A DNA stretch of 64,000 nucleotides, taken from contig CM060733.1 of NCBI GenBank assembly GCA_030704615.1, positions 39,308,001 through 39,372,000 of the forward strand, in the 5' to 3' direction. The notes below the pieces were generated by a model. It had not been told where the DNA came from. It ran no database searches and saw only the letters and a list, made by a program, of their open reading frames with translations. Source of the stretch: Takakia lepidozioides (taxonomy: Eukaryota; Plantae; Bryophyta). The position numbers were made by a program, and so were the translations under genes. Below, piece by piece: positions 7,770 to 63,890 of the stretch. Position 1 is the stretch's first letter; every line of letters starts with the position of its first letter.

Positions 7770-8219
7770 CAAAGTTCAGAAGGTTCTAAGCTGCCCTAGT
7801 GGTATAGTTGCATCCCTCTAAATACTGCCCTTCATTCTGTACCAATTGTCACATGTGAGGGGTCAAACACAGACTGAAAATCTTAGAGAGTTCTTCATAT
7901 GAACTGCTTGCACACTTAAATATGGCTATGGCACAGGGCGACTGCTACTGATAGGTGGATCCAACAAGGCTGTTTTGCTTCTCATCTTCTGAGCATTTGT
8001 TGTTGTGTCACCTTCTTCAACACATTTCACCCTGTTTTTCCCTCTTATCAGAATCGGCCCTAAAGTTTCATGTCAAGTCACAGCTGCTAGTGGTTGAATT
8101 ATTCTGATACAGCACTGAAGGTGGCCTGCTCAAAGTTTGTGGCCTGTTGTTTAAAGCAATGTTTGTGGAACTTTGGTAGTTGTAGCTGGGTATAGATGAT
8201 GTTGTGATCAAAAGTCTTG

Positions 8220-35019: not shown

Positions 35020-37536
35020 CTAGCAGCAATTTCTGAGAGTGTTCTTGGTGTCTGTTTTTGAGCCCATCCCATTTTTTGCTGCCAAAACCTTGTCAACCAC
35101 CTCTGACATGTCTTCCCACACAATGGGCTTGCTAAGATAGCCGTCCAGGCCTGTCTCTTCCATTGGCCCACTCTCGGGAGCCAGTGCATCTGCTGAAAGT
35201 GCATAAATGGGAACCCTGCACAATGGAGGCGGCAACGCACGTATTGCCCTTGTTGCACTCAGACCGTCAAGGACAGGCATCTGTAGATCCATCAATACCA
35301 GATCATAGGTTTTCCTTTGGACAGCTGCAATGGCCAGCTTGCCATTCCCGACCAATTCCACATCATGCCCATAGTGCCTGAAAATCTTCTGTATAAGGAG
35401 CTGATTGACTTTGTTATCTTCTGCCACTAAAACACTCACAAACTTAACCTCCTCTTTGATGGTGGACATTCCTGGATGGGGTAAGGGTGGCTTCACAGAA
35501 GAAGGTGAAAGGTCCAGGAGAAGCTTGCTTGTGTCTTCCGCAGACAGAAGCGGCAAGACAAATGTGACCTCAGTTCCATGGCCAATTTCACTCTCCACTC
35601 GTATCCTCCCGCCCATCAAACCTAGCAATGCTTTGCAGATAGCCAGTCCCAGGCCCGTTCCAGCTGCATCCCTTCGGGGTGCCCCAGCATGTGCTGCAGC
35701 AAACAAACAATCAAGCTGCCCCTTGGCAATGCCTACACCTGTGTCTACAACTTTAATCTCCAACCATAATGTCTTATCCTTTGTTGCAGAACCAGCCCCC
35801 TCTGTTTCTCCAGATTTGATGCTCGCTTTTCCTGTAGCCAAGGTTCTTTCAGCAGTACCCACATCGAGAATTGGAGAGCTGGAGCGTAGAAGCCCACTAG
35901 CACTTCTCCTTATTTTTGATGTAGCTTGAAAAAGTAGCAAACTGGTGGTTGAATCCATTGGTGGAGGTGGCACATATTTCCAAGACACTACAATGTTTCC
36001 TGCTTCTGTGAATTTGATGGCATTGCTCACAAGATTCACTAGGATCTGGCGGAGGCGGACAGGATCTCCTCGCACGGCAACAGTGGCACCTGGTATGCCC
36101 TTTATGGTCATTTTCAAGCCCTTTTCTGCCAGTTTTTTCTCATGCAAAGTAGAAACTTGATCGAAAAGGTCGGTAAGTGAAAAGTCAATTTCTTCAAGAA
36201 AGAGGCGGCCAGCTTCCATCTTGCAGAAGTCTAGGATGTTATTGATTACTTGCATGAGGCCCTCTGCTGACTCCTGCATTATTTTGACCAGCTCTTGTTG
36301 CTGTGGCAAAAGCTTTGTCAAATTCAAAAGATCAAGCATCCCCAGCACTCCAGTCATGGGGGTTCGCAGCTCATGGCTCATCATAGCCAGGAACTGTGAC
36401 TTGGCCCTATTTGCTGCTTCAATGGCATCATTGGCATCGCGCTCTGCGGTGACGTCTTCATACAGCCATAACCGCCCATGGGCAGATCCAGTACTCACTG
36501 GATATGACCGGACATGAAGCACCCGGCGAGGCATTTTCAGCTCCCATTCTTCCTCAATCTCGTAGTCCTCCTGCCCTGCTAGTGCCTTAAACCATTGCTG
36601 AGGATCTGTCCGGGTGCCACTACATTCAGCCAATTTCCGCATAGCCCCAGCTATCCTGGAGGGCTCTACTTCCCCCTGTGAAGGAAGCTCCAAGAGCCGT
36701 GCAGCTGCAGGGTTGATAACAACCTGTGCCATTTCATCATCCACAAACACCACAGCTTGCGGCATCATCTTAAGAATTGCATCAAAACGCTTCCCCAAGC
36801 GCTCAAATTTGCGACCTCCAATTCTATTTGATAAGAGCATTGGTAAAGATTCCACTGCATCCGAGAATATAGCTTCGGTTGTGACTGGAATTTGAGAGAC
36901 TTCAAGCCACAATGCAAAGAAGATACCTTCATATCCTTCCATCGCAAAACGATGACCAATGAATGCTTGTGGCTGGCCTTCCAGTGTCTCTCTGAACTCG
37001 CGTGGCAAGGTTAACCCCTCAGTACTGATTACCTTTCCTGAGAGAGCAGCAAATAGCTCTGGTCTGAACTCAATTAGCTCAGCAAACCTTAGGCTTTTTG
37101 GAACAACTAGAAGAGTCTCTACAAGCCTCTCGTGGTTCTTCCGTATGACCCCCACCACCACAGCATCGGCTTTTGCAGAGGTGGCCACAATTTGCAACAC
37201 CGCATATGGCAAATGGACAAACACAGCTCCAGGAGACTGGGGAGGGGAGTCCCAGTGGAGCTCCCTCTTAATGGGCCGAGGTGTTTCTGGTTTAGGGCTC
37301 TCCTCCTGGGGGGCCCCTTCAACAAGCAAACTCAAGAAATGATGGCCTGCAAGCCCAAAACTTTCAGGGTCACCCTCGCTGCTTGTGTTGGATGAGTCCG
37401 ACTCTCTTTCTCCATCCATCAACACGTCTCCGCCCCATGCAAATACCGGATGTACTGTTGCCCAAGGCTCTGTCAGTCCGGCACCGACACCTATTTCTCC
37501 TGCAAGCAATCCATGGCCATAAGCAAGCAGGGACAT
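35020..37536 (-). CDS. Soluble hybrid histidine kinase (N-terminal sensor/PAS - HisKA - HATPase - receiver), single coding exon
   Basis: PAS-like FDAILKMMPQAVVFVD..INPAAARLL..EDVTAER; H-box KSQFLAMMSHELRTPM; N-box RLRQILVNLVSNAIKFT; G1 DTGVGI; G2 GTGLGLAIC; receiver AEDNKVN..LMDLQMPVLDG..YLSKP. First ATG is at 37536, behind an acceptor-like ccag. Confidence 0.93.
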   Translation of the reverse strand: MSLLAYGHGLLAGEIGVGAGLTEPWATVHPVFAWGGDVLMDGERESDSSNTSSEGDPESFGLAGHHFLSLLVEGAPQEESPKPETPRPIKRELHWDSPPQSPGAVFVHLPYAVLQIVATSAKADAVVVGVIRKNHERLVETLLVVPKSLRFAELIEFRPELFAALSGKVISTEGLTLPREFRETLEGQPQAFIGHRFAMEGYEGIFFALWLEVSQIPVTTEAIFSDAVESLPMLLSNRIGGRKFERLGKRFDAILKMMPQAVVFVDDEMAQVVINPAAARLLELPSQGEVEPSRIAGAMRKLAECSGTRTDPQQWFKALAGQEDYEIEEEWELKMPRRVLHVRSYPVSTGSAHGRLWLYEDVTAERDANDAIEAANRAKSQFLAMMSHELRTPMTGVLGMLDLLNLTKLLPQQQELVKIMQESAEGLMQVINNILDFCKMEAGRLFLEEIDFSLTDLFDQVSTLHEKKLAEKGLKMTIKGIPGATVAVRGDPVRLRQILVNLVSNAIKFTEAGNIVVSWKYVPPPPMDSTTSLLLFQATSKIRRSASGLLRSSSPILDVGTAERTLATGKASIKSGETEGAGSATKDKTLWLEIKVVDTGVGIAKGQLDCLFAAAHAGAPRRDAAGTGLGLAICKALLGLMGGRIRVESEIGHGTEVTFVLPLLSAEDTSKLLLDLSPSSVKPPLPHPGMSTIKEEVKFVSVLVAEDNKVNQLLIQKIFRHYGHDVELVGNGKLAIAAVQRKTYDLVLMDLQMPVLDGLSATRAIRALPPPLCRVPIYALSADALAPESGPMEETGLDGYLSKPIVWEDMSEVVDKVLAAKNGMGSKTDTKNTLRNCC

Positions 37537-38399
37537 TTCAAAGGTAGGTGGCACCTGGATTGTCTGTGGCCCTGCCCGTGTCGCTCTCTATGATCTCTCT
37601 CTCACAACAAGTCGGTTGAAAGCTGGTGACGTCCTTTCCAGAAAAACCTCGTGTCCAAGCTCCCTCTACAGGTCAGATCAAACTGATGCCTTTGAATTGA
37701 TCAAGACGCAAAGCAGGCTCAGAAACTCCGAACGATCTGAGGTCCGTAAAAGACCAGATAGAAGTAAGAGAAAGAAACCATGACTTGCCGTGCTATCTTC
37801 AGCGCCTACGTTCCCATATGCACGACCTCATGAGCTAGAGATTCTGCAGCCGAATCTCTTGTGTGTTCTCAAACAGTACTCCTCAGCTTCATTAATCTCA
37901 GAGTCACGGACATCAATGGCAGGCCAATCTTCCAAGGGATCCAATACCGGAGATCCTCGCTGCTCAAGTCACACTGCTTGCGGTCCCAAAATCTAGTGGA
38001 CGATCCCATCTCAATCTACAGTATCTTACAATCTCCATCACTTCGGACCTGTCGACCTCCACACCTCGAAATCACATGCAGCTGTATTGGTCCGGTCTCA
38101 GAATGCGTCATTTTTTTTCCCCGGAATCCAAGTGTCTATACATTCTGTGTAGCCATTACTTGAATATTCTTTGGCCTAACGGATTGCAGCATGTCGTCCT
38201 ACTCTTCTAGACTGCTATTACGTTGACGTCCCTCCGGACATGCCCAATTTCAACCCCTTGCAGAGCTTCACAAAAAGAAAATGTGGAAGATGCAACCCCG
38301 AAAGTGCCAAGAGCTTTAATTTGTCACATATAAAAGGTCCTCAAATCTACTTACGAGACCGTCCACCTGAGATAATCTTCGCCATCTTCAGGAAAGTCA

Positions 38400-46500: not shown

Positions 46501-49500
46501 TGGAAAGTGCAGAGAATGGTACCCATCGCACCTTGCTACCGTAAATCCTCCGAGTGGTTTGACGGAGCTGAAGAAGGGTAAGAGAGGGAATGTATGAGAA
46601 CAGAGTGGAGCCTTCCCCCATTAACTGTGCAGAGCCAAAGAAGGAAATAAAGAAATTTTTAATGTCATGAGAGTGGATAAGCCAGAAACCAAATTGAAGT
46701 CAGGCCTGAATCCAAGCACCATGTGGAAGTAAGCTACCAAGCAAGAGTGAGACAGAGAACATATTGATTCAATTTACCCTGTGAACATTGGCTATGACAC
46801 ACCCTTAAGAGCATGGCGCCACGAGATATTGCAGGGTTTCAGCCCACCAGGGAATTTTAGACCCACCCATCATTTGCCCATAGGTGGCAAAAAGTCAGTC
46901 ACTGGTAATTGCAAGTCACATACGTGTTGGTAGTCACAGGATGAGGTTGATAGCATTGAGCTTTCAAAAGTTGTGACACATGGCTGTAGTGGCACTGCCA
47001 GTGACAGTGTTGGCAGAAAGGAGAGACTGAAACTTCGATACTGTTCAGAGAGAGAGAGGTATGCCTTTGCCTACCTGGATGAGAGGCAAGTTCCATGGAA
47101 CAGTCCTACATCAGCATAAGATGTCATGTGGTTTTGTGCCTTCACTCCAAAATGTTGGCGTTCTGGTCGAGGTGCAGTGCCCTCACACTTTTCAACCCAA
47201 AACTCTTTTCAGGGCAAACCACCTCCGCCAGTGCCTGGAAGCAATCCGCCATGCTCTACTCTCTTTGTGGCGAATCTGGGGCCTACATGTACCGAAGATG
47301 AACTTACAATATTGCTGTCTAGGCGAGTCCCCCTTCCCTTAACAACAGTTTCTTCTTGCTCTCCCCTTTATGAACAACTTGGCAGCTAAGCCTGATCCGA
47401 CTATATCTGCTCTTCCCTTTCCATTCTGTTCACTCAATTGGGCATGGGATTCAATGCAGCAGCAACGAAACTTGAATTATGAGAATATCTCTCCACCTCA
47501 GTCAAGGCTATGGCTCTCTGAATATTCTCTCTGTGGCTAGCTTTTTCTGTGACATCATTTTGTGTTTTGTCCCTTGACCTCCTTGAGGATGTCAATATTG
47601 GTACAAAACCTATTCCCTGCCTCTCTTTGGTTCTTTGCACTGTCCTCCTCCGTCCTGCATTGTACCAACTGAAAATGGACACAACAGCTGTCTTGCTTTC
47701 TCTCTGCAAGGACCCCTCCATAGACTGGCAGCATGACAGTGGCCAGATTGGGTGCCGCAGTAGCAGTTCTGGAATCTGTGTTGGGTTTTCTAGCATTATT
47801 ATGTCTGTACCAGTTCGGACATTAAACACACAATTGCCTCGTACAAAGTTGTCGTTGGAAGTGTACAGCAACTTTGTGTTGAGGGTGGGCATTGTCCCCG
47901 GGGACTAGCCTATGTCATAGCAATGTTCGCAGGGAATGGTTAATGCTCTCTCTGCACCAAGTCTGTTTGGAATTTTCTTTTTGCTCCAAAGAGCTTCCAG
48001 TGAATGTATTGATATATATATTTTTAATCTTCTGGGTGCTTGTAAGGTCCTTTCCACAGAATGTGTCTCAGTGGGAAAGCCAAGCCTTGAGGTCTCATGG
48101 ATACCACATTGTTGTGCTGCCCTGTGCATGTCCTTGCAGGTTTCCTGGTTACCAAAAAATGAAGTACCAGATAAAGGGTGGACTACCAGTGGCCTTTGTC
48201 GAGTTCCAGGTCCATGTGATGTACATGTCAATTCGCAGCCTAGTGTGGGTGCTGCTAAGAAGGGAGGGCATAATGCAGCTATTTTATCCCAAGGACATTG
48301 TTGAAATGGGGGACCATAGTTTGATTGTCAACTAAAAGATCAAGTCTTCCCCCTCTCTTTCCAACATGATTGGGAATGGGCACAAGGGTACTGCAGGCCA
48401 TAGTCCATCTCTTGGTTTCTCCTCTAAACTGCCGGGTCATTTAGCGACTATCTCATGTTAGTGACATGATACATGCGGGTCTGGGTGCAGGATATAATGT
48501 GCTCCACTCGAGCACTGTCAGATCTCCAGAATTATGTGCTTCCATCATCTGATAGGGAAGGAATGCGCCTTGAGTATCCTCTCTCATGTAGATTGTGTTT
48601 TGTATATTTACTTTGCTAACCTAAATGGTGAGGATGACGAGGAACATGGAACTAAAAGAGGTAGAAGGGCTGCCAGACATTTTGTCTGAGGTGCAAGAAG
48701 GTACTGATCAGCTTTTGCTGACAGATGTTGACTATGAAGTATCTGTGACGGCATAGTTTGAACACTATATCAACCTTATCAGAGCCATGTCTTGGTTCTA
48801 CCCACCAGGGATAGAAACCCAGCTGAAAATCATCGTAGAGACCCAGCTTAGCCACCCTAATAGGGTTACAAGGGAATGGTTTTGATATAAGGTCTAGTCT
48901 CAATGTCACGCTTGAAACAGAATGTTAATTCCACTGTGAAGAGAGGGATAAACTGCTTGATTCACATCAGAGAGTGTTCTTCATCTTTCCCAGGGAAATA
49001 TTGCCTGGGGTATGCTTGAGGACATATTTCCGTGGGATATGAATCAACCGGCACTTGCCATAGGTCACCGGTTGATTGCAGCACTAATGATATAGCACTA
49101 GTGTGGGGCATATGATCACCTGACGAAAAAACAGGGGAAAGGAGGGAGGAAAAAAATTATTACATCCTCAGAAGGCATCATCAAACCAAAAGAAGTTCCC
49201 AGAGGAGAATCTCAGTACCAGAATAAGACTTCCAAGTGATTATGAACTCAGCAAGCTGTCCGAATGAGACAGAATCTTAGCATGAGGTCGTCTGGTGCCT
49301 ATGGAATGGAAGATTTGGGGTGAGATGGTGCACTGAGCCCATGAATCTTCCCAAGACAGTCTAGAGAATAATATCTGCTGAGCAGTCTCTAGATATGTCA
49401 TGTCTGAAGAGGGTTCTTCGCCAGTATGCCAATGAACGCTCTGCCGCTAATCTGAGAAGGTGTACTAAAAATGTGGTACTCATCCCACTTTTGGAGAGAA

Positions 49501-50256
49501 ACCAGCAAACAACACAGAGTGGAAGAGGGAGGTACTTATAAGACTTTGTTTGCCGTAGGCTTGTAGCCATAGACCCCGCGCCCAGTTTGGGTGGAAGAAA
49601 AGGGACCAGAAACTACCTTTTTGAGGGGCTCACTCCGGTAGTATGACTTACCTTGATACAAACAATTAGTTTGGGCTTTCCAGATATCCTCTAGTAAGCC
49701 CTTCACACAAGCATCAATCTGCAGTGTGTGAGTAGACCAAAAGGTTAGGCCAGGGATTTAGGCTCAGCCTCAAGAGAGGAAGAGAGAAAGGACTTTGCAG
49801 GAGGCCCAAAGGGATACAAGTACAAGAACATAGTAGAGCCAGGGAAACCTGAGAACACCTAAGAGCTCAAGCTGTGCAGAGAGGTGTAGTACCTCAGGCA
49901 CATAAGCTGCTAAATGAGCGAGGGATGTATTCGCAGACCAACCTATAAGGTGCCCAGGGCGAAGTCCCCATAGTAGAGCCTTTCTGAGATGATTGGAGTA
50001 CCTCATGCAGATAAGCTGCTAAAAGGGAGGGAGAGGGAGGGAGGGAGGGATCAAACTCAGTCAGAAATTGCTGAAGCACTTGCAGGCAGTGGATGCTGAC
50101 CTGGTACTGCATATATTGATGATCAAACGTGAACAGCCTACTCCAAAGAAGATTGTGAAATCTAGCACTGTTTTGAATGATTGCATCTTGACTCGCAACA
50201 GATATGCGAAAGCAAAGATGGGTCAGCCAAGACGAGATCGATCTGGGCATCTGTAG
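40554..50256 (+). CDS. Two-RRM RNA-binding protein of the NSR/RBPMS/couch-potato family, about 10 exons
   Basis: [28 protein letters not shown]..|[14 protein letters not shown]..|[22 protein letters not shown]; RRM2 [21 protein letters not shown]..|[16 protein letters not shown]|[13 protein letters not shown]|YAKAKMG..* (50254-50256). Confidence 0.9.
42284..42509 (+). repeat. Intronic direct duplication (~95 bp x2)
   Basis: ttggatttgcctattgt...gtggcctgatcctgcattga at 42284 and 42412. Confidence 0.85.
49561..49768 (+). repeat. Dispersed ~200-bp repeat; a second copy (50660-50782 + 58874-58978) is split by the retroelement
   Basis: gccatagacccc..cccagtttgggtggaa...aaacaattagtttgggctttccaga...ttaggctcagc aligns across both flanks of the retroelement. 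Confidence 0.8.
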
Positions 50257-50782
50257 TATAAAGCTTGTGTAAGGCAAATCAAGAAATTGAGGGCCTCAAC
50301 ATACTTGTTTCACAAGGGATCTTGTCATATCATCTCAAAAGGAAGACCTCCATCAGAGTACAGTCAAGAGAGTACAGTTCCACTTGGAAACTGTGTTTAA
50401 AGGGTTATCACTTTCTACTTGAGCCCAGTTTTCTATGCTGAACAGGTTTCCTGTAAATTGGTCTCAAGTCTTCGGTCTTGTCATGATTTCTGCTTGCCGT
50501 TGAGTTACCTTTTGGAAGGCTGTTCTAAGTCAGCTTGGACGTCTTCAATTGAGTTCTGTACTGCCTTCCTGTGCGTATTCCATGAGGGCTTTCTTTGTGT
50601 CTGCTCTTAACAAGAGACAAGCTGACAAGTACAGAGAATGTACAGTAGCCTTGTAGCCTTGTGGCCATAGACCCCACTCCCAGTTTGGGTGGAACAAGAG
50701 GGAACAGACAACAGACACTGCCTTTGTGAGGGCCTCACTCCAGTAAAGGGACTTAACCTTTGATATAAACAGTTGGTTCAGG

Positions 50783-50970
50783 TGTCGTGCGCATACATAT
50801 CGCTACACAACTACATCGCTGTCCAAAACCACACAACACATGTGCACACCACACACTAGTATATCACTAGTCCACCACTAGTCCAGCCACTAGTCCAACC
50901 ATTAGGCTACAACTAGTCAGTTACTAGGCTGTCACTATGCTGCCCACTATGGCAGTCACTAGTCCACACA
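50783..50970 (-). repeat. Putative 3' LTR (188 bp) following the polypurine tract; internal CACTAGT(CC) repeats
   Basis: On the minus strand: PPT, then TG...CA ending at the TSD. No second copy found in the window. Confidence 0.5.
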
Positions 50971-51230
50971 ATCGCCCCCCTAGCTGGTGCTTAGGTCCCT
51001 CTAAGTCCAGGTAGCCACAAGATGTGATAGTGACCATAGCCTCACTAAGTCCTCCACCACTATCCCTACTACACTCAAACTCGATAGATCAAGAGGTCGG
51101 GTGCAAGAATTGCCCCATCGTTAGTCGCCGTCTTGCAACCTGTGAACTTGAGCTTGGGATCTCATGTATTGACTCCTATGAGCTTGGCCTCCCATGTCTT
51201 GTTAGCTGATTCCAGTCATGTCCACTGTCA

Positions 51231-52640
51231 CTATCCCAAGCAGTATGGACACAACCAATCTCCGTCAGGAACTTTCTCAAGAGGTGGTGTCAAGCATCCC
51301 ATATGCCAACCCCTTGAGCATCGATCACACACCAGCATGGTGGCTGCCCATTTGGCAGACCCACAGAGCATGCACCTCAAACCTGCAGGTACCACTGCCA
51401 AGTTTGGGTCAACTCTGCCATCGACATTGGGAAGGTGATATGGCGCACAATTACGCACATGATCCTTCCAAGTCATGCCATCCCGACCCTCCAAGATCAG
51501 GACCCCTGAGGGCAATACCTCTCGAACCCTCAGAATAACACGCCCTGCAATAACATCCAGAGTCGTAGGAGCAGTCTGCTGCAAATAAACATAGTCACCA
51601 GGGCTAAACCTCCCATGACGATATCATCCACCACGTATAGTGGCATATCTCAACGTATCACGGTGTTGTGCAATGGCAAGGTTCTCAAAAGCCATGGGCA
51701 TGACTTTCTTGAACAACTCTGCACGCTGATCACATGCACCTACCCACACGTCCGGATCGTCAAGGTTAAGGACTTGAGCAGTGTCCCTACGAATGGCTGC
51801 AGGCAAATCCGGCTTTCGGCCAAAGAGAAGGAAATATGGTGAGAAGAAGGCAAGTGATGCTTGTTTGCTGAACCTGTAGCCCATGGCTAACCAAAGAACT
51901 TGAAGATCTCAATCTCCTAGGTGTCCATTCTGCAAGCCATACTTGCACAAACCCCTCTTCACCGTCTGAACAACTCTCTCTGCTAAGCCATCGGCCTCAG
52001 GATGATCCCGAGAAGTGGTGCGGTGGTCTATCAAGGCTTTATCACACAAAGCCTGAAACTCCCCCAAAAACTCTCTCCCTTGGTCCGTGAGTACCTCAGC
52101 TGGAGCACCAAATCGGCTAAGCACACGATCCAAGAATGCATACGCAGCCCCCTCACTAGCCTTGTCAGGAAATGGAACCAACTCAATCCACTTGGAGAAG
52201 TGCTCCACCATCACCAACACATATCTGTGGTGGCGCATAGTCAGTGGCAACGGTCCTGCGAAGTCAAGACTCCACCTGTAGCCCAATCCCATGATTGGTA
52301 AAGGATGCAACTGTGGTGTAGGGGCGTTGAATGAAGCACGCACCCTGTCACACACCATGCACCTAGCCACGAACTGTTGCACCTCTGTATGCATACCACG
52401 CCACCAATACTGCCCCTGCAGTAAACTGTGAGTGCGTCGCACTCCAAAATGCCCCAACTCCTCATGGGCATGCCGCACTAACTGTGCACGCTGTGTGGGG
52501 TGAGGCACAATCCTCACCCGACCATCCTCCCACACTCGAAGTAGGTGTATCCCCTCCCACTTGAACCTCTTGGCTCGTTGCAGGATCCGATCCCTCTCCC
52601 TGGCAGTCACAATGGCTGTCGTGTCTCCCGTGCGAAGGTC
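51231..52640 (-). pseudogene. Retroelement integrase (HHCC zinc finger + rve core) with C-terminal PHD finger; two in-frame stops
   Basis: HEELGHFG..CMVC; WSLDFAGPL..VLTDQGREF..HPEADGLAERVVQT. PHD: CMLCGSAKWAATMLVCDRCSRGWHMGCLTPPLEKVPDGDWLCPYC. ORFs 51909-52610, 51624-51884 and 51231-51584 share one frame. Confidence 0.92.
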
Positions 52641-53194
52641 TGCTTGTCCGCCTCCTTGATTGGCAACTGGTGATATCCGGATTGTAAATCCAAAGTGCTA
52701 AAGGCCTTAGCATGCCCGATGGCATCAAAGATCTCCTCTGGTGTTGGCATGGCATACTTATCGGACTTGGTCTGACGATTTACAGGCCGGTAATCACCGC
52801 ACATACGTCTCTCCGTCCAATTGCCATAGACATCCTTCTTGGCTGGCATCACTGTGGCTGAAGCATACTCTCCACTAGAGAGCTCCACCAAACCTGCCTC
52901 CCAGAGATCTTGAGTCCTCATCTGAATCAAAGACCTCTCCATGTCACTGTATCTATAGGGTCTCCGAAAGATTGGCGTGTCAGTGGCCAACTCAATAAGG
53001 ATCTCTTGACCCTTCAGTGCTCCCAAGTCCTTCAAACTGAAGGCAAAGCAATTCTTGTAAGCCCTCAGGAACCGCCGTATACGTCGTCTCTCTCCTCCGG
53101 TGACAATGGGTCCAATGTCAGGCTCCCAATTGTCCTCCGTAACTGCAACCTTAAGTCCAGTGGGCTTAGAGGTAGAGGACGCGTCCCGTGGTTG
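52641..53194 (-). pseudogene. N-terminal part of gypsy reverse transcriptase, truncated before the YxDD motif
   Basis: PIFRRPYRYS..YASATVMPAKKD..RRMCGDYRPVN..DKYAMP..FSTLDLQSGYHQLPI, then an abrupt junction to pre-integrase sequence. Confidence 0.9.
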
Positions 53195-54445
53195 CTATGC
53201 TGCAACCTCTTGAGCAGTACTCCCTGCCTGCTCAGTCAATGACAAGACCTCATCCTGCCCCATCATCTCATCATTGAGGACCTCCTCAACCCGAGAAAAA
53301 TCCCCAACCTCATCTATCACAGCCGCCTTGGCTGCCAACTCTCTCTGAACCTCGAGCACCTCCCATGTGTGCCATGGATGCCTGCACCCCATGGTCCTCA
53401 CATGCTCGCCCCCACTCACTGCCTGTACCGTCTCGGTAGGCAGAAAGACCATCGAGGGAAGTGTACTCCGCACTCTGCGTTGCTCAGCCAGAGCCAAGCT
53501 GATAATCCAGGTCAAGCAATTGAGATCCATTGCTTGCCCCAACACTTGACGACGTGATGCCTCAGAAAGAAACGACACCGCCGTGGTATCAGTGGTAAAA
53601 CCCATTGTCCGCTCACGCTCGTTAGCATTAGGCTCCACTAACTGCTGCAACTGAGCATCCCACAGGAGGCCAGGTCCACTATCCCGGAAAGCATGCGATC
53701 CTGGGAAGCTGAGCAGTGTAGGTAATGCTGCTCGTGGTTGACCCACCTTGTTGACCACTGCCAAAGGCGAACGGTCATCGTGTCTCACACGCTGAGACTG
53801 CCTCCTTGTGTCCAGAATGTTATCCACTGTGAGATGTGCTGGCCGCTGCACCCCTTCAAATGCACGCTTGAGCAGTGCGGGTGGCATCAAGTTAGTCCAC
53901 CACAGCCGTGGACGATGAGCCCGTGACCCCATTGTAGCTGCATCTAGCAACACTGCTGATCCAAGCCACGACCGGACTTGATGCACACTGGCCATCACCC
54001 TGGCCCGAGAATCGCCCATCAGTGGCACATTCTCCAAGGTGTATGCTGGAGATACAGCTTGATGAAGCTGCAAGTGGCGCAAAACCCGCACCATCTCCCA
54101 AAACAGACCCGACCTCGAGTCTCGCAATCCATTGCCATGCCCGGCTGATGAATGCCCTTGGCAGGGCCAACCTGCCACTACCAGATCAATGGAGCCAACC
54201 CGCTCCAAATCCTGCGCCCCCAGCAACGAAATGTCTGCTGGCAAGGCCTGCTGATATCCACGAATTGCAGACACCGACAACAACTCAGGGTACCGCTGCA
54301 CCAACTAAGCAACATGGCGAAGTGAAATGCGTCGTGCAGTCTCATCCCTCTCCACATATAGGTAACGCTGAACTCGTACACCTGCTTGTAACACAGCAGC
54401 CAATCCGGTGCTGATCCCGCCAAACAAGTCCAGAAGACAAATGCC
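53195..54445 (-). pseudogene. C5 cytosine DNA methyltransferase domain (DNMT3-like motif order) within the retroelement pol frame
   Basis: Motif I LDLFGGISTG and motif II YLYVERD (54445-54340); one TAG at 54305-54307; motif IV VAGWPCQGHS; motif VI LENV; motif VIII AHRPRLWWTN; motifs IX-X ERERTMGF..RRQVLGQAMD. Confidence 0.9.
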
Positions 54446-54446
54446 T

Positions 54447-55700
54447 CATGGCAGCGAGCCTCTGCTCTAGCTGCTGAAGCCGGGTGGCCATGCCTTGGTC
54501 AACACCCTGACCTCCGCGTCCTTGGCCACGTTGAGCTTGCCCTTGGCCTGCACCTCGTGGCTGGCCACCTCATCCTCTCTGGGCTGCTCCACCTCGCCCC
54601 CGGCCACCATTGTTCCCTTGGAACTGGCCTGGGCGCAACTCAGGATGCAAACCATAACACTGGGCCTCTCCATGCCCGTGCTTGCCACAATGCCCACACT
54701 GCAACTGTGCAGGCTGTGCATGTGCCGACCCTTTGCCTCCCTCTGGGCAATCCTTCTTGACATGGGGTCCTCCACATGTCCAGCACACCACATCCGCCCG
54801 TTGTTGGCCAGCAAATGAAGGGAGAGACCCCTGCATCTGAGGTCCTCTCTGCCCTTCCCTGAGCTTCACCTGAGCCCCCTTGTTGCCTTGAGCACGTTGA
54901 GGTAGTGGTTGGCTAGGAGCACCACTACCCCGTGGTGTCTCCTTAGCAAATCCCACCGTGACCACTCGTTCCTCCACCATGTTGAGCTCTATCCGCTCTG
55001 CCAGCAAAAATACATTTGCTAAGGTGGGTTGGGCCGCTTGTAGGAGAGTTGCATCCCGCACCCTTCTCCTCAGCTCCTTGTCCAATATCCCATACCAGAA
55101 TTGGACTGCCTGAGCTTCCGTAACCCCTTGGGTTACATTTATCAAGCGCCTCATGCGAGTGAAAGCCTCCCTCAAGCTCTCGGTTGGCTTCCGTTGGAAC
55201 TCTTGCAAGCTCCGCAACTTCTCTATCCTCACCCCTTGGTAGTTCCCTCTCAACTCTTCGAAGAACTCCACAACAGGGTTGAAGGCAGGCACGGGTGCTA
55301 GTGCTGGTGCGGTAGTGGCTTGGGTGGACGTCGTAGCTACTGTACCACCAGTCCCACTAGTTCCATTGCTACTTGCTGAAGCTGCCGGTGCAGCGGCAGG
55401 TGTAGCCACTGCCCTCGTGGCTCTAGTGCCCCTAGTGATGGAGACATAGTCGGGTGACCAGTACATCCTCCATTCCTCGATCTCAACCTCATGCCCCCGC
55501 CTGAACTCATGGTAATCATCCATAGGCGGCCCCTCAAGGTGCTGAAACAGCCCTTTCCATGCCATGAACGGCGTAAATAGTTGTGGATTGCGCATTTGCT
55601 GCAAATCACACCAACTATCAAACTCTTGGATAAACACTCCTATGGTTGGCTGGTCATCACCTCCAACCTCACCACAGGAGAAACAATGATGGTCTGGCTG
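54447..55700 (-). pseudogene. Retroelement Gag with two zinc knuckles and an RGG-rich tail
   Basis: Retrotrans_gag-like FFEELRGNY..LRSLQEFQRKPTESLREAFTRM; CWTCGGPHVKKDC; CGHCGKHGHGEAQC. After a TGA at 54570 the frame continues to LEQRLAAM. Confidence 0.85.
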
Positions 55701-56254
55701 GTCATCACCCCAGCCTCACCATCGACAGCATGCTCTAGGACTGGCCGGTGATCAAATCCGGACCAATCACCTATAAAAACAAGCGCCCACACAAAACTAG
55801 CATGGCGCACAGTCAAGCATGCAGGTATGGAGGGGATCCAAACACAAGAAATCAGAACGACAACTCCCCCACACCAAAAACAACTCCACGGTGTTGCTCC
55901 TGCAAGGACACCCCAGCCCAAACCCGGACTGACTCTTGCCTCCACCTACGGAAAGGTCTTGGCCTAATGAGAGGGTGGAAACTACGATGAAGAGAAGCTA
56001 AAGCAATGCCTAACCCCAGCATGCCCTCATCCCAACACTATTCCTCTCCTCTCTTCCCTCACTTGCATGACCATGGGAATATCATGAAGATACTCCTCAA
56101 ACCGCCCTCCACGAGCTTCAAAATTCGGCCTTCCAGACCACATGCCAGTCCTTAGGCAGTCCACCAGTGCCTCCACGAGTCAGCACAGGCCGTCCACAGG
56201 TCAACACGGGCCACCACAGACCAGCACAGGCCCACACAGCTCACTGGTCATAGC

Positions 56255-57020
56255 CGTCACAGTCCCACAGGCCACTGGGCACAGCCTGCCACAGCCCCGC
56301 ACAGCCCGTCACAGCCCCACAGGCCACTGGGCACAGCCTGTCACAGCCCCTCACAGCCCCAAAGGCCACGGGCACAGCCTGTCACAGCCCCACAGGCCTC
56401 AGGCACGGCCTGTCACAGCCCCTCACAGCCCCTCACAGCCCCTCATAGCCCCAAAGGCCTCAGGCACGGCCTGTCACATCCCCTCACAACTCGTCACAGC
56501 CTCAAAGGCCTCAGGCACGGCCTGTCACAGCCCCTCACAGCCCATCACAACCCCAAAGGCCATGGGCACAGCCTGTCACAACCCCTCACAGCCCCTCACA
56601 GCCCCAAAGGCCTCAGGCACGGCCTGTCACAGCCCCTCACAGCCCATCACAGCCCCAAAGGCCATGGGCACAGCCTGTCACAGCCCCTCACAGCCCGTCA
56701 CAGCCCCACAGGCCACTGGGCACAACCTGTCACAGCCCCGCACAGCCCGTCACAGCCCCACAGGTCTCAGGCACGGCCTGACACAGCCCCAAAGGCCTCA
56801 GGTGGCCCGTGGATGATATTGGAGATTATGTCGACACGTGACGACACTCTCAGCATGGACACGTGTCGTCACAGCCCCTCACAGCCCGTCACAGCCCCAA
56901 AGGCCTCAAGCACGGCCTGTCACAGCCCGTCACAGCCCCACGGGCCTCAGGCACGGCCTGTCACAGCCCCTCACAGCCCGTCACAGCCCCAAAGGCCTCA
57001 GGCACGGCCTGTCACAGCCC
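56255..57020. repeat. GC-rich minisatellite (tcacagcccc-based ~10-nt subunits in ~50-nt units) in the retroelement leader
   Basis: Repeats of gcacggcctgtcacagcccctcacagcccgtcacagccccaaaggcctcag, interrupted at ~56802-56868. Confidence 0.92.
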
Positions 57021-57489
57021 CATCCATGGCCGCTCTGGCAGTTTAGCCATTTCTCCAAGGGGTTTAGCCACGCCAAGCTAGGGTTTGTGTCTCTTGGACT
57101 CTAGGCTTCTTTCCACCGAGCTATGGCGGCTATGAGGAAATCAGCAAGGTATTCTTGCTCTTTCGGCTCCCACACACCACCATAGTAGCCCTAAGCCATG
57201 AGGTGGTTGCCACAAACCAAGCCTTCTTTCTCACTTAGCCTCCCCAAACACGCCACTAAACTCAATGGCAAACAACCAAGCCCTGCTGGTTCCCAGCCCT
57301 TGTGAGCACTCATTCAAGCACTCTCCTTAGCCATAGCGTCTGTCTTAGAGCCTATTCCAGCCCCCTACACCTGCTGCTTCAAGAGTTGCGCTCCCTTCAA
57401 GCTTGAAGTTGAAACCCCAACTCACATAGGCCCTACAAGTGCTTTTCTTTCACTCCAAGTGGAAACCAGCCCTAGACCTTCCGTTCTAG

Positions 57490-57900
57490 CTCTCTAAAGC
57501 TTGAAAACAAGAGCCTCAATGGGCTGAAGGCATGCTCCACACATGCCCCACTCTCACCATAAGAGAATCAGCTCCTTTGCTTCATTTCTTGCACCCACAA
57601 ACCTGAAAATACAAGCTTCAACAGGCTGAAAGCATGCTCCACATGCCCTATAGGGAAACCAGCCCCTTCCTTCCTTTCTTGCACTCCCACACCTGAAAGT
57701 GCAAGCCTTCACCAGGCTGATAGCATGCTCCACACATGCATTGCCCTCACATAAGGGAAGTCAGCCCTTCCCTCTTCCTTGCTTGCTCTCCAAGCTTGAA
57801 GATGGAAGCTTCAATGAGCTAAATACATGCTCTACACATGCAACCTCTTCACACAAGAGATATCAGCCCCCTATCTTGGCTCCTTGGTTCCTTGATGCTC
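57490..57900. repeat. About four degenerate ~100-bp tandem units in the retroelement leader
   Basis: Recurrent (c/t)tgaaa..aagc(c/t)tca..ggctga..gcatgctccacacatgc..cagcccc blocks. Confidence 0.7.
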
Positions 57901-60410
57901 TCTAAGACAAGACTAAGCACTCCACAGCCTTTGCCAAGCTCTTGAAACCCTAAGGCTTATATTTCCAGCCACAAGACACTTCTCTTGTGGTGCAAGAGCT
58001 CTTCTTCCAAGCTCTGAAACCCTAGGTGCATATTCCATGGCCTTGCCGCACCTCTTAGCTCATGTTCCAGCCCTGCTCTTGCCATGACAAGAGCCCTCTC
58101 AATGCTGAAGCTCGAGATTGAAATCCAATCTCACCATACTCCACAAAGTGCACTGATTTGCCCCAAGCCAAATCAGCCCTTTCGCTTGGTCTTGCAATCC
58201 TTCACACAATGAAAGCTCGCATTCCCAAGTCCAGTTCTCAGCTTTGCCACCAAAGCCACTATAACCTGCTCTTGACTGGTCTTCTTCCCAATCGTGCTTG
58301 CTCATGCATGTACACAATCTGAAACCATCAAGGTGCTCTGGAATTACCTGCAGTATGGTGCTTTCATCTCTGAAGCTGAAGATTGAATGCCAAGGTCTAC
58401 CACCTCGTAACCCACATCGCCTCCGCTTCTAACAACCAAGAGCTCCACGGTGCTCCTTGCATAACAACTTGGTTTCTCTCATTCTCAAGCAAAAACCACA
58501 AGTGCTACAACTAACTCGTATCTGGCACTCACAGATACAGGCTCATCTTTCTCGAGTGATAAAGAAGAAGAATACAAGCACGAGCTCACAAATCTGAAGC
58601 ATAAACTCATGCATATATAACCTCATCACTCAAATACAAGTCAAGCCAAGTGCACCCCACGCCATGGGGAATCCACACTACGGCGCCATAGCTAGGCGCG
58701 ATGAGGCTCAACTCGAGAAAGATGAGCCTTCCGCGCTTGCCGTGAAAATAACCACTCTAGGGCCTAAATCTGCCTTGACCCCTGGATTGACACTTGGGCC
58801 AATCCCAAATGTCAATATGTAAAAGCTAGCTATTTCCTAACTAGTTTCACACTAGTGGTAAAATAACTTGACACAGGCTTTCCAGACTTCCCTTGGAAAG
58901 CCCTCACACAGCCAACAATCTGGCGTGTGTAAGCTGCCCAACATTAGGCCCCAACAGGGCCAGGTCTTTAGGCTCAGCTAAATTTTGAAACTTGGTGAAA
59001 AGAGGTCGAGGGACTACTCTTAAAGGTCCTAGAGAGGGTTGCTCTTTGATGAAAAGACCCACACAATGTTATCTCACCTTCATTTCTTTCTGATTTTAGG
59101 GCCCAAAACAATCACAAGTTTTGACAGAAGTGCAAAAAGTTAATCGCTTACAGTTCCTTTCACCCATTTCAACAGCTTCAATCCAAGCAAGATTCTTCTA
59201 GATCAGGATCCAGAGCTTCTTCTTGTCTGACTTCCAGTTCAATTTCACAAAGATAATACTTGTAGAAAGGAGATTAGTCTTGGAAGTGATATCCATTGGG
59301 GGACATAGGCATATGCCACAACATTAACAAACTCTGGTAACAACTTGTTACTGCTTTTCAAGTGAAAATTAACAAACCATCCATGGCTTCCAGGCTGTCC
59401 TTTAAGGGTACAGACAAACAGAATATATAGCTTATAAGCTACAACTCATCCTCAAAGCAATCACTTCCTCCACCAGCTGCATTACTTCGGTGTATGAGAA
59501 ACTGAGTGAACATGTGACTTTCCTCTACTTACACAAGTTTGTCCAGTACATACAGCAACATGTTCGTGTGATCAATCATCAGATACTGTACTGAAATGTC
59601 ACCACAGTTGATCTCATCAGGACTCTAATGACAAGCTACTGTGAATTATGTAGAAAATCCCTCCTTCAGCCCTGCTAGTACTTTCCACGAAACTCCACAG
59701 AAGGCACCACATGAAAGATCCATGGATGCTTTTTCACTTTCTCTTTCTCTAACTAGCTCTGTCACTGATATATTCAAGCATTTCCACGAATCCCAAACCA
59801 GACTGGGACAAATCACAGACAGTACAAATGCAGTACAAACTCTGGATGTTTCCAAAACCGGTTATGTGTGTGTGTAAGTATATCCCAGAACGTTGGACAG
59901 TAAACAATCGTCCAAAGGGGCTTTATCAAGGCTTGCGGTACTTACTACTTACCAGGCTTCTTCTTCCCACAAATATCGTCTCACATTCACCGAAGTCTTA
60001 ATCGTGCGGTCCGGAAGTCGCCAGCCTGACTAGATGGATACTCCTTTAAGCAAATGGACTAACTTTTCACTGCAACGGTGCAGATGGAACGTTGAGAAAA
60101 TCTTGCGGCCACTATGGATTCACGAGGTTTCGTCTTTTCGTCCATTCATCCCTGGAGGTGCAGAGAGCAGAGAGATATAGAGAGAAGAGAGAGAGAGACA
60201 AGGGTGCAGTGCAGTGCAGTCGGCTATGGTGGCTGGGGCTGCTCAACTCTGCTGGCTTTGATCGATGTTAGGTACACAACTGTGCCTTGAGGTTGGAGCA
60301 ACAGGAACTTGAAGATTCTAACTGATCGTCCCCTTCAATCTACAGATCTTCCTTCAATCTAGATTACTGGGAGCAAACAATATATCTGTGCTCTGGGGTG
60401 GACACTGGCG

Positions 60411-61367
60411 ATGGCGGGAAGGGGAGCAGGTCCAGTGGGTCGCGCTTTCTCTCGGTTTTCTGGAATTCTACGAGAGAGGGTTGCCGACAGCTCTCAGTTG
60501 AGTGCAGGGGTTTCAGTGCTGGCTGCTAGGCAGCGGGATCGCAAGGGAAGCGTGGGAAGGGATGGGATGAGAGCGCTGGCTTTGCTTGGGGCAGGAGCCT
60601 CCGGGCTTCTAGGGCTGGCTGGGTTGGCCTACGCAGACGAAGCTGAACATGGGTTGCCGCCACCACATTATCCATGGTCGCATGAAGGCCCTTTCAGCTC
60701 CTATGACCATAATTCTATCAGAAGGGGTCATCAGGTTTACCAGCAGGTCTGTGCAGCTTGCCACAGCATGTCCCTAGTGGCCTTTCGAGATCTCATTGGT
60801 GTTGCTTACACGGAAGATGAGGTGAAAGCGATGGCAGCCGAAGTGGAGGTAGAAGACGGACCAAACGACGAAGGGGAGATGTATACGCGCCCTGGCAAGC
60901 CCAGTGACCCTTTTCAGAGTCCGTATCCAAACGAGGCCGCAGCACGTTTTGCTAATGGTGGTGCCTATCCTCCTGATCTGAGCCTAATGACTAAGGCCCG
61001 GCATGACGGGCAGAATTACGTGTTTGCTTTGCTGACTGGGTACCGCGAACCTCCTGCCGGCGTCTCAGTGAGAGAAGGATTGCACTACAATCCCTACTTT
61101 CCAGGGGGTGCAATTGCCATGCCGAAGATGCTCACCGATGGCGGAGTCGAGTATGAGGATCAAACTCCTCCCACAGAGTCTCAGATGGCAAAGGATGTCA
61201 CCACCTTCCTTGCATGGGCTGCGGAACCTGAGATGGACGAGCGCAAGCTCATCGGCGCAAAGTGGATCTTCGTGCTGACGCTGGTGTTGTTTCAGGCCGG
61301 CTACTACAAGCGATGGAAATGGTCGCCCATCAAGTCTCGAAAGCTGGTCTTAGATGTTGTCAACTAA
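60411..61367 (+). CDS. CYC1: Mitochondrial cytochrome c1 (complex III), intronless CDS
   Basis: Presequence; ADEAEHGL..YPWSH; heme motif QVCAACHS; PPDLSL; YNPYFPGGAIAMP; C-terminal TM helix and KWSPIKSRKLVLDVVN*. Confidence 0.97.
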   Translation: MAGRGAGPVGRAFSRFSGILRERVADSSQLSAGVSVLAARQRDRKGSVGRDGMRALALLGAGASGLLGLAGLAYADEAEHGLPPPHYPWSHEGPFSSYDHNSIRRGHQVYQQVCAACHSMSLVAFRDLIGVAYTEDEVKAMAAEVEVEDGPNDEGEMYTRPGKPSDPFQSPYPNEAAARFANGGAYPPDLSLMTKARHDGQNYVFALLTGYREPPAGVSVREGLHYNPYFPGGAIAMPKMLTDGGVEYEDQTPPTESQMAKDVTTFLAWAAEPEMDERKLIGAKWIFVLTLVLFQAGYYKRWKWSPIKSRKLVLDVVN

Positions 61368-62059: not shown

Positions 62060-63290
62060 CTCCTCGGATCGGCCATCTCTGGTGCGCTTCTACCTCTCCT
62101 GTTCTGGTAATGTACACTTGTTTTTCGGTTTTGGTGTTTGATCTTCTGGTGTTGGATTTTGGGGTGGAGAGCTGGATATGGAGTTTAGAGCTTGCGGAAT
62201 TGTTATCATCAGAGGAGGTTTGGTTAGCTGCTTGGAGAGCCATTTGGAATAAGCGCTTGTTGTTAGTTCTTCTACATTTGTTTCCGGTTTTGGTGTTTGG
62301 TCTTGTGTTGCTGGATTCTCGAGTGGAGAGCTGGATGTGGATTTTAGAGCTTGCGGAATTGTTATCAGGAGAGAGGAGTGGTTTGGTTAGCTGCTTGGAA
62401 AGCCATTTGGAATAAGCGCTTGTTGTTAGCTTTTCTACATTTGTTTCCGATTTTGGTGTTTGTCTTGTGTTGCTGGATTCTGGAGTGGAGAGCTGGATGT
62501 GGATGTTAGATCTTGTGGAATTGTTATCGGAGAGGAGTAGGTTAGTTAGCTGCTTGAAGAGCCTTTTAGAATCAACGTTTTGGTGTTAGTTCTTGTACAT
62601 TTGTTTTTGTCGTTGGTGTTTGATCTTCTGTTGTTGGATTTTGGAGCAGAGAGCTGGATATGGATGTTAGAGCTTGCGAAATTGATATCGGGAGAGGAGT
62701 AGGTTTGTTCGCTGCTTGAGGAGTCATTTAGAGTCCTCCTTTTGGTGTTAGTTCTTTGACATTTGCTTCCGTCTTTGGTGTCTGGTTGGGAGAACTTGCA
62801 TAATTTAAGTCGGGAGAGGAGTAGGTCTGCTTGAAGAGTCATCGCCTTCACCTGCACAGATCAGCCATCTCTGGTGCGGTTCTTTCTCTCTTTGTTCTGG
62901 TAATGTACACTTGTTTTCTGATCGTGGTGTTTGATCTTCTATTGTTGGATTTTGGAGAGGATAGCTGGATATGGATGGGTAGAGCTTGCACAATTGATAT
63001 GGGAAGAGTACGGAGTAGGTTTGTTAGCTGCTTCAGGAGTCATTTAGAGTCCACGTTTCGGTGTGAGTTCTTCGACATTTGCTGCTGTCTTTGGTGTCTG
63101 GTCCTGGATTCTTGGATTTGAAAACCGGATTTGGATTTGAGAACGTGCGCAATTTTATGTCGGGAGAGGAGAAGGTTTGTCATCTGCTTGAAGAGCTGTT
63201 TGGAGTCGACTTTTGTTGTGAAGTTGGTTCTTCGCCGATTTTTCCGTCTTTAGTGTTTGGTCTTGAGTTGTTGGAAAATACTTAAGTTGT
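62060..63290. repeat. Degenerate ~160-bp satellite-like tandem array
   Basis: Units ttttggtgtttgatcttctg..ggattttgga..gagagctggatatgg..agagcttgcg..ttagctgcttg start at ~62129, 62288, 62451, 62611, 62773 and again from ~62920. The leader block at 62067 is repeated at 62860. Confidence 0.85.
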
Positions 63291-63296
63291 TGGATT

Positions 63297-63890
63297 TACC
63301 TGGATTACTTGTTGGTTGTGCATCTAAACGTTTATCAGTTCGCCTTAGATAATACTTCCCTGTCAAGGTGCAAACATTACATAGCATGTAACTATTTCTC
63401 TATGGATTTTAGTGTCATAAATTACGACATACAACATCCTATTTATCACACACACACAAAGTTGGACAAAACTCAAAATTAGAGATTGAAAAGCTCCTTT
63501 GGTACATAGCGGCATTACCTTGGATGGATAGACATTTGCATGCACAGGCATGCAGGGACGCATACAGGTTTGTAAAGGTGGGCCTGTTATGCATGTGAAA
63601 TGGGTTTGTCCCAATACTTGCAGTGCTCACTGTATATTTTTGTTGTTTTGTTTTGTTTTGTTGGGTCAGCCAAGACCAGATCGATCTGGGCATCTTTAGT
63701 ATAAAGCTTGTGTAAGGCAAATCAAGAAAATGAGGGCCTCAACATACTTGTTTCACAAGGGACCTTGTCATATCATCTCAAAAGGAAGACCTCCATCAAG
63801 TTAGCATGCAAAGAGTCGCAGCAAGAGAGTACAGTTCCACTTGGAAGCTGTATTTGAAGGGTTATCACTTTCTACTTGAGCCCAGTTTTC
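63297..63890 (+). pseudogene. Chimeric duplicate of two non-adjacent pieces of the RRM gene (intron 44591-44935 + last exon/3'UTR 50220-50433)
   Basis: Near-identical alignment by eye of 63297-63640 to 44591-44935 and of 63663-63890 to 50220-50433, joined by a (gtttt)n linker. Confidence 0.9.

Follow-up and report, generated by a model that had tools for sequence, protein, structure and literature searches.

A decayed Gypsy retrotransposon of a land plant with a DNMT3-type methyltransferase domain ahead of a conserved, probably leaky stop codon

A cytosine DNA methyltransferase (DNMT) domain inside a retrotransposon raises the question of which protein of the element carries the enzyme, how that protein is made and which DNA it may modify. 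We analysed such a locus in a stretch of 64,000 nucleotides, hereafter the window. The first-pass annotation of this DNA had described the domain as an integral part of the Pol polyprotein, placed between gag and the reverse transcriptase (RT) of a gypsy-type element, and had taken the single TAG seen between domain and RT for a mere interruption. The role of retrotransposon-borne DNMTs has been open since 2018, and their known hosts are hard to work with. In the following, L-numbers denote loci from a metagenome collection and P-numbers denote homologous proteins.

The element in the window and its methyltransferase domain

The element occupies positions 50783-58873 of the minus strand (8,091 bp), begins with TGTCA and ends with CGACA, and is flanked by a 4-bp target-site duplication, CCTG (5' copy at 58874-58877, 3' copy at 50779-50782, both on the minus strand). 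Within 49000-60500, CCTG followed by TGTCA and GCACGACA followed by CCTG were each found once, and the ends agree with those of relatives. They are confirmed by a host repeat at 49555-49751, paralogous to the target site and without the element, since the two flanks match consecutive parts of this uninterrupted repeat (75.6% to 58876-58950 and 78.6% to 50653-50778). The direct repeat 49555-49610/50653-50708, considered as a B1/B2 pair of the element, and the segment 58700-60050, considered as its repeat A1, were both rejected by alignment and correspond to host target-site repeats. Another dispersed host repeat is found at 50219-50433 and 63662-63890, and a degenerate array with a period of about 160 bp at 62098-63214.

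A long 5' non-coding region with tandem arrays of 10-, 31-, 41- and 51-bp periods (56169-57021) precedes gag, which has zinc knuckles (54570-55715, on the minus strand, as are all coding parts given below). This gag is 57% identical to that of the Marchantia protein P0003, its match to PF03732 (E 0.003) being below the cut-off; a premature TGA is located at 54570-54572, and the frame continues to about 54448. At 54445-54470 the frame changes across a deletion junction where about 1.44 kb, including the protease (PR), is gone: 25 nt separate the gag-end motif from the start of the DNMT, versus 1,467 nt in L059 and L063, and a protease is present at this position in relatives (PF13650, E 2e-4 in L074). 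An RT does follow the domain in the same frame, as had been described, but the adjacency of gag is due to this deletion. The DNMT domain (53477-54445) is followed by an open, G-rich linker of about 93 codons that ends ORF1 (53198-53476), by the conserved in-frame stop with a predicted readthrough signal, TAG CAA CCA (UAG-CAR-YYA; 53189-53197, the TAG itself at 53195-53197), and by the start of ORF2 (52640-53194), which comprises a short spacer and the N-terminal half of the RT (PF00078, E 8.7e-5; 74% identical to the RT of Marchantia P0005). The RT homology begins near 53128, not at 53035, where the RT ORF had initially been placed.

A second deletion junction (52595-52648) has lost about 1.17 kb, that is, the remaining C-terminal half of the RT and the RNase H (RH), with 53 nt in the window versus 1,225-1,228 nt in L059, L066 and L078. 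Beyond it lie the zinc finger and DDE core of the integrase (IN; 51624-52597; PF17921, E 7e-17; PF00665, E 1e-13), with premature stops at 51909-51911 and 51624-51626, the C-terminal region of the integrase with a PHD finger (51231-51623; PF00628, E 8.6e-11; natural stop at 51231-51233), and a polypurine tract (50985-50975), after which one 3' terminal repeat, B, closes the element (both within 50783-50985). No downstream A2-B2 was found after repeat B in the window copy. The TAG at 53195-53197 is the sole stop between DNMT and RT, as had been stated, but a second TAG at 54305-54307 lies inside the domain; besides TAG 53195-53197, four premature stops were counted (one in gag, one in the DNMT and two in the integrase). 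Doubly deleted and with these four premature stops, the window copy is dead. ARAGORN revealed no tRNA within the window.

All the C5-methyltransferase motifs, namely I (LDLFGG), II (YVERD), IV (GWPCQ), VI (ENV), VIII (RPRLWW) and IX/X (ERTMGF..LGQAMD), were found in one minus-strand frame (54445-53477), with motif I first and motif X last. The complete and unpermuted motif set that the first-pass annotation had reported is thereby borne out, and it distinguishes the element domain from plant DRM, in which the order is circularly permuted. The profile PF00145 matched the window domain with an E of 1.7e-12 (47.8 bits versus a cut-off of 22). When solved structures were searched with the single window sequence, DNMT3A ranked first (E 6e-11), and a profile of 29 relatives gave DNMT3A at E 1e-23, DRM2/DRM at 2e-13 to 8e-12 and HhaI at 1e-6. 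The structure model of an intact relative, P0173 (pLDDT 85), retrieved only DNMT3A/B/C among the 34 matches listed, with a best E of 4e-20, which also supports the DNMT3-like character first proposed. The ESM Atlas returned generic C5-methylase clusters only, the first being a 57-member Streptophyta cluster. Both the SAM-binding and the catalytic motifs are kept across the family. Judged by its unpermuted motifs, key residues and structural matches, the window domain is a genuine DNMT3-type methyltransferase domain. It has fold and motif order in common with the mammalian host enzymes DNMT3A/B, but it is about 22% identical to DNMT3A and is intronless and mobile. A host DNMT3 of plants (PpDNMT3b, PMC6453930) was set beside it by its published description rather than by direct sequence comparison.

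The conserved stop codon and the expression of the enzyme

The TAG at 53195-53197 proved to be a conserved feature and not a simple interruption of Pol. At the matching codon, the 18 copies of the closest subfamily, representing no fewer than 16 separate loci (identity is about 99% within each of two pairs), all have a stop (14 TAG and 4 TAA) and none has a sense codon. At the other 765 codons of the same alignment, stops were found in at most 5 of the 18 copies, and at CAG codons in 30 of 236 cells. In L074 (2,407 codons), which may represent many copies merged during assembly, TAG CAG TTA contains the sole internal stop between the first Met (1006) and the end of the PHD finger (8227), and divides the frame into a Gag-PR-DNMT part of 1,359 residues and an RT-RH-IN-PHD part of 1,047 residues. 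The distance from the stop to the RT match is 69 nt in the window as in L074, their linkers being unrelated, and in three subfamilies whose linkers differ in length (330, 264 and 396 nt) and are unrelated in sequence, the reading frame from DNMT to RT is preserved. The evidence for the stop at DNA level covers the window, the 18 close copies, L074 and L076, since L123 is too decayed to be read.

The context of this codon corresponds to UAG-CAR-YYA, the type I readthrough signal of TMV (PMC3542737), a motif that is functional in planta (PMC2754532). It was found in full, and in frame with the downstream ORF, in the window, L074 and L076, which represent two of the three subfamilies; the Sphagnum-type subfamily has CAA CCC in 17 of 18 copies and otherwise CAA CCT, matching five of the six bases with a base other than A at +6. 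At other premature stops CARYYA was found in 0 of 111 and 0 of 448 cases in two alignments, and its in-frame background is 0.2-0.7%. A stimulatory RNA structure 3' of the stop was considered and rejected, one of five folds being significant. Proteins from unspliced contigs, from Marchantia and from Calypogeia end 94-202 residues past motif X (94-100 in Marchantia and Calypogeia). Rows labelled as stop-bearing formed one clade in the DNMT tree (98/98) and in the RT tree (SH-aLRT 99), these labels having been assigned not blind, after the RT tree had been seen, and for P0001, P0173, P0327 and P0355 without junction data.

In the second, distant subfamily (26 copies), in which no internal stop is fixed, DNMT and RT share a single ORF, and Klebsormidium-type proteins continue from the DNMT into the RT; therefore, the stop is dispensable for DNMT retention. 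The window lineage, with its fixed in-frame stop, does not have the uninterrupted DNMT-RT ORF of the KnitGypsy-Dnmt3 kind, and therefore its DNMT terminates ORF1 (Gag-protease-DNMT3) and is not simply a Pol domain. From the codon and its context, we consider it likely that the RT-RNase H-integrase-PHD part is made by readthrough of the UAG.

On balance, the reading that we favour is that of a dead copy of a land-plant Gypsy-DNMT3 element in which a leaky UAG would follow Gag-protease-DNMT3 and the enzyme would be produced at Gag-like amounts, probably methylating new cDNA. Translation would mostly terminate at the UAG, yielding Gag-PR-DNMT, a minority of ribosomes would read through and add RT, RNase H and integrase, and the protease would release the DNMT within the particle at Gag-like abundance. 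A conserved leaky stop predicts a stoichiometry of much enzyme and little RT, and this one would make a nuclear transcript of bryophytes a candidate for readthrough of the TMV type. Lying beside the enzyme in the particle, new cDNA would be its likeliest substrate, and cDNA methylation by retroelement Dnmt domains was proposed by the authors of the 2018 study (PMC5890265). If an insertion arrives already methylated, the host may tolerate it, or it may initially be kept silent. Chromatin targeting is a function of PHD fingers, and the one of this element may serve it. Whether the domain is catalytically active with cDNA as its substrate is, in our estimate, an even call.

Another possibility, which we rate as rather unlikely, is that readthrough occurs but that the DNMT3 directs its methylation at host DNA or the target site, or that it is a nucleic-acid-binding structural component of the particle. 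Gag-level amounts would suit such a component; in 85 of 141 further clusters the domain is located elsewhere, between RNase H and integrase; and the KnitGypsy-Dnmt3 domain of Klebsormidium gave no methylation in yeast, a result called inconclusive, human DNMT3B having failed there too (PMC5890265). The retention of SAM-binding and catalytic motifs throughout the family speaks against a role other than on cDNA, as does the de novo CG methylation by the related SymbioDIRS-Dnmt3 domains (PMC5890265).

Regarding the synthesis of the RT, we consider it quite unlikely that a genuine stop is circumvented by splicing, in the manner of Ogre, or by reinitiation, with the DNMT still at the end of ORF1. 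Some Ogre transcripts lose an intron located between gag-pro and RT (PMC6317226), and in the present family the TAG could double as a splice acceptor. Public gene models do cross the junction by splicing, but they disagree on the splice points: the six NCBI models that extend beyond the DNMT each skip the junction at another point. In addition, the linker is G-rich and not U-rich, its frame is kept in three subfamilies and its dN/dS is 0.54, and CAR-YY, which would be needless for splicing, is retained 3' of the stop. Reinitiation could use an ATG at codon 3 past the stop in the Sphagnum type and at codon 5 in L076, but in the window and in L074 no in-frame ATG precedes codon 85 and codon 117, respectively, which lie inside the RT. 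Very improbable is the origin of the TAG by ordinary decay (methylation-driven CAG or TGG to TAG) in a single gag-pol frame: the four other premature stops of the window copy and the hot-spot codons of the distant subfamily, with stops in up to 10 of 21 copies, would agree with it, but the stop is present in 18 of 18 copies with zero sense codons, is alone in the intact L074 and has a similar position and context in three subfamilies. We retain readthrough as the preferred explanation.

Distribution, inheritance and termini of the family

Named relatives, with up to 72% identity, belong to Marchantia, Riccia, Calypogeia and Sphagnum. Among 52 longer homologues, 21 had an organism label: 16 from Marchantia polymorpha (some possibly one locus under different annotations), 2 from Calypogeia, 2 from Sphagnum and 1 from Klebsormidium. 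The 120 near-length matches listed of 191 added M. paleacea and Riccia and included no vascular plant names. The closest relative among the matches listed, P0182, is 89% identical to the window DNMT plus linker, which suggests that further copies of the window's exact family exist. In the metagenome collection (26 of 64 parts scanned) we found 321 relatives and kept 80 loci, many of which have the order gag-PR-DNMT-RT-RH-IN-PHD, intact in L074. Identity of their DNMT to a Marchantia query was about 63-75% in a close group, which clusters with a named Sphagnum protein in the tree, about 50% in L074/L076 and 33-43% in a distant group. The distant subfamily (L085-L133) is AT-richer; its gag and pol share one open frame, and CAG and TGG codons have decayed heavily to TAG, a pattern consistent with host methylation of dead copies. 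A viral contig collection provided 58 loci with short matches only (24-57% identity, E 7e-12 or weaker), which were not used further.

A profile search yielded 510 clusters at E up to 1e-30. The best 150 of these included 141 new clusters, with the DNMT after RT/RNase H or before the integrase in 85, on the protease side in 10 and alone in 46. Five names were obtained from 30 representatives: Closterium (n=4) on the protease side and Scenedesmus (n=1) on the RNase H side. With the RNase H side as outgroup, the two placements separated at 100/100. The sister group with DNMT3 between RNase H and integrase includes L134:7859-12406, P0043, P0048, P0342 and others, with intact motifs in P0043 and P0048; its member from the chlorophyte Scenedesmus lies outside the streptophytes, in which Gypsy-DNMT3 was described.

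Purifying selection on the DNMT was detected between L074 and L076 (dN 0.034, dS 0.261, dN/dS about 0.13; for the RT, dN 0.013 and dS 0.272) and between the window and L062 (dN 0.20, dS above 2, dN/dS below 0.1), after dropping the out-of-frame integrase rows and the linker rows versus other subfamilies, which had too few codons. In addition, the main groups of the DNMT and RT trees agree. Because of this agreement and of the purifying selection, one old capture, inherited with the element via streptophyte algae into bryophytes, fits the data; horizontal spread among bryophytes is a possible alternative. The domain is thus an integral part of the family, under selection, and no one-off capture, as the first-pass annotation held, but the stop places it at the end of the Gag-protease ORF and not within Pol. 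Likewise, the lineage that it supposed to have persisted in, or been transferred to, this land plant does have a land-plant host, but it occurs widely in both liverworts and mosses and has relatives in the algae Closterium and Klebsormidium. Least probable of all is a one-off capture of a host DNMT3 fragment, with the methyltransferase lacking in other members, or an algal contaminant contig: all the family searches were queried with the DNMT, leaving DNMT-free sisters outside their scope, and the trees contain no host DNMT3 gene, but hundreds of relatives lie within retroelement polyproteins, the family-wide domain order and dN/dS contradict a single capture, the target-site duplication sits in a host repeat, and the flanks carry an editing-factor-like PPR gene and a cytochrome c1 from outside the vascular plants.

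With respect to the host, the intronless cytochrome c1 gene (60363-61367, plus strand) was set with bryophytes and algae at 96/89 in a midpoint-rooted tree, in an open fork with Sphagnum and other mosses; this one gene points to a land plant outside the vascular plants. The PPR gene at 6897-7766 is presumably of the editing-factor type by its motifs, and the flanking genes are land-plant-like, as had been noticed at first. It lies in a plus-strand region (3400-8100) of repeated, partly decayed PPR pieces mixed with a repeated WWDN-type motif, which we take to be the PDF motif of organellar single-strand DNA-binding proteins, and with many direct repeats of 60-95%. Several host genes in the window have no introns, among them an NBP35/NUBPL-type ATPase (29925-30932, minus strand). 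The window also encodes an intronless 855-codon PAS-HisKA-HATPase-receiver hybrid histidine kinase (35023-37587, minus strand); of its Atlas clusters for which taxa are recorded, the nearest are bacterial, although this does not prove a transfer.

Annotated copies with intact Gag-PR-DNMT frames, e.g., Mp4g09160 and Mp8g17980, are present in Marchantia polymorpha. Since this liverwort is a genetic model with available methylomes, the question of the role of these enzymes becomes testable. A Marchantia methylome paper counted five host methyltransferases and appears to mention none from transposons (PMC5784723).

Regarding the termini, the canonical pair of identical LTRs was not found in the window element, its 5' and 3' ends having no similarity. 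Paired LTRs are likewise absent from its relatives. Among 30 classified relatives, a few of which are one locus counted twice, the polypurine tract is followed by B-A-B in 12, by B-A in 2 and by B alone in 16, A being also the 5' end. B-A-B may correspond to a DIRS-like split-repeat layout, and the window copy ends in B alone. LTR finders will therefore miss elements with such split ends, which may explain the lack of reports. The inner junction, CGACA-NN-TGTCA, joins the two termini in head-to-tail orientation, 2 nt apart (e.g., in the split repeats of L078:10238-10805 and L089:14154-14798). A 4-bp duplication was found in 6 of the 13 loci with both ends located, L106 being a seventh. The duplications (CCTG, TACA, AAGG, CATA, GGTC, CCAA, ACAA and ATCC) do not fit NCGN, the target preference of the Phygy clade of plant Gypsy elements (PMC6317226). 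A shared target preference, considered from a 9-nt match past the end of L061, was rejected, as no further similarity was found. Together, the split repeats and the 4-bp duplications suggest integration from circular cDNA by the DDE integrase. Circles of one-repeat or two-repeat cDNA cut at CGACA-NN-TGTCA would yield both end forms, for which the circle junctions of IS3-type elements offer an analogy; alternatively, the short form could arise by recombination between B1 and B2.

A wider reading that joins these parts can be offered as tentative. It would comprise an ancient green-plant DNMT3 lineage in chlorophytes, streptophyte algae, liverworts and mosses, with the DNMT3 kept for hundreds of millions of years, a viral-type leaky amber acquired on the main land-plant branch, a Gag-level enzyme methylating its own cDNA, and integration via a circle cut at CGACA-NN-TGTCA that would give rise to both A...B and A...B-A-B.

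Comparison with known systems

The window element is a member of the KnitGypsy-Dnmt3 kind, which was reported from Klebsormidium nitens (de Mendoza et al. 2018, PMC5890265). The Klebsormidium element likewise has an intronless, unpermuted Dnmt3 domain in a Gypsy polyprotein, upstream of the RT, and shares the purifying selection; a DIRS-like repeat layout was noted there, to which the split ends of the present family may correspond. In our family, the Gypsy order gag-PR-RT-RH-IN with a DDE integrase is intact in L074 (PR and RH are deleted from the window copy), and the DNMT is intronless, within the polyprotein coding region and homologous to the Klebsormidium domain: the window DNMT is 45% identical to P0039 (E 3e-59), and RT-IN, compared via L074, is 47% identical over 923 residues. 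The protease-side DNMTs formed one clade (100/100 versus the RNase H-side outgroup). On the other hand, the frame passes from DNMT into RT without a break in the gene model P0039 and in unspliced relatives, whereas the bryophyte lineage is split by a fixed UAG with readthrough context, and the host of KnitGypsy-Dnmt3 is an alga, whereas the elements studied here are in land plants. Stop, target duplications and land-plant copies appear to be unmentioned in the text of that paper (PMC5890265).

The kind has been known since 2018; for land-plant Gypsy-DNMT3 copies or the conserved stop we found no report in a literature search with subscription journals and repeat databases outside its scope; this agrees with the initial impression that such domains are not a standard feature of embryophyte LTR elements. 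Two later papers, one of which cites the 2018 study, use the term streptophytes for Gypsy-DNMT3 elements, and their tree figures or preprint supplements may include bryophyte copies; one supplementary file of PMC12344493 contained no matches (see also PMC11982613).

SymbioDIRS-Dnmt3, SymbioLINE-Dnmt (PMC5890265) and EpiLTRs (bioRxiv 10.64898/2026.05.21.726589) are likewise retroelements with a cytosine methyltransferase, but they belong to other retroelement classes or DNMT clades and are independent captures according to those papers. With the type I readthrough of TMV replicase and benyvirus coat protein the element shares UAG followed by CAR-YYA (PMC3542737). Among retroelements, SIRE1 is listed with an in-frame stop (PMC2194720) and RIRE2 is a readthrough candidate (PMC2754532); in this type the stop lies between gag and pol or pol and env, whereas here it lies past the protease and an added enzyme, directly before the RT. 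Finally, Ogre and other two-ORF plant Gypsy elements also have Gag-protease apart from RT-RH-IN, but in Ogre a spliced intron of about 274 bp lies between the frames (PMC6317226), compared with a single in-frame codon in the element described here. What is new with respect to these systems is a Gypsy-DNMT3 lineage in land plants in which the enzyme has become part of the Gag-protease frame through a conserved stop codon that is probably leaky.
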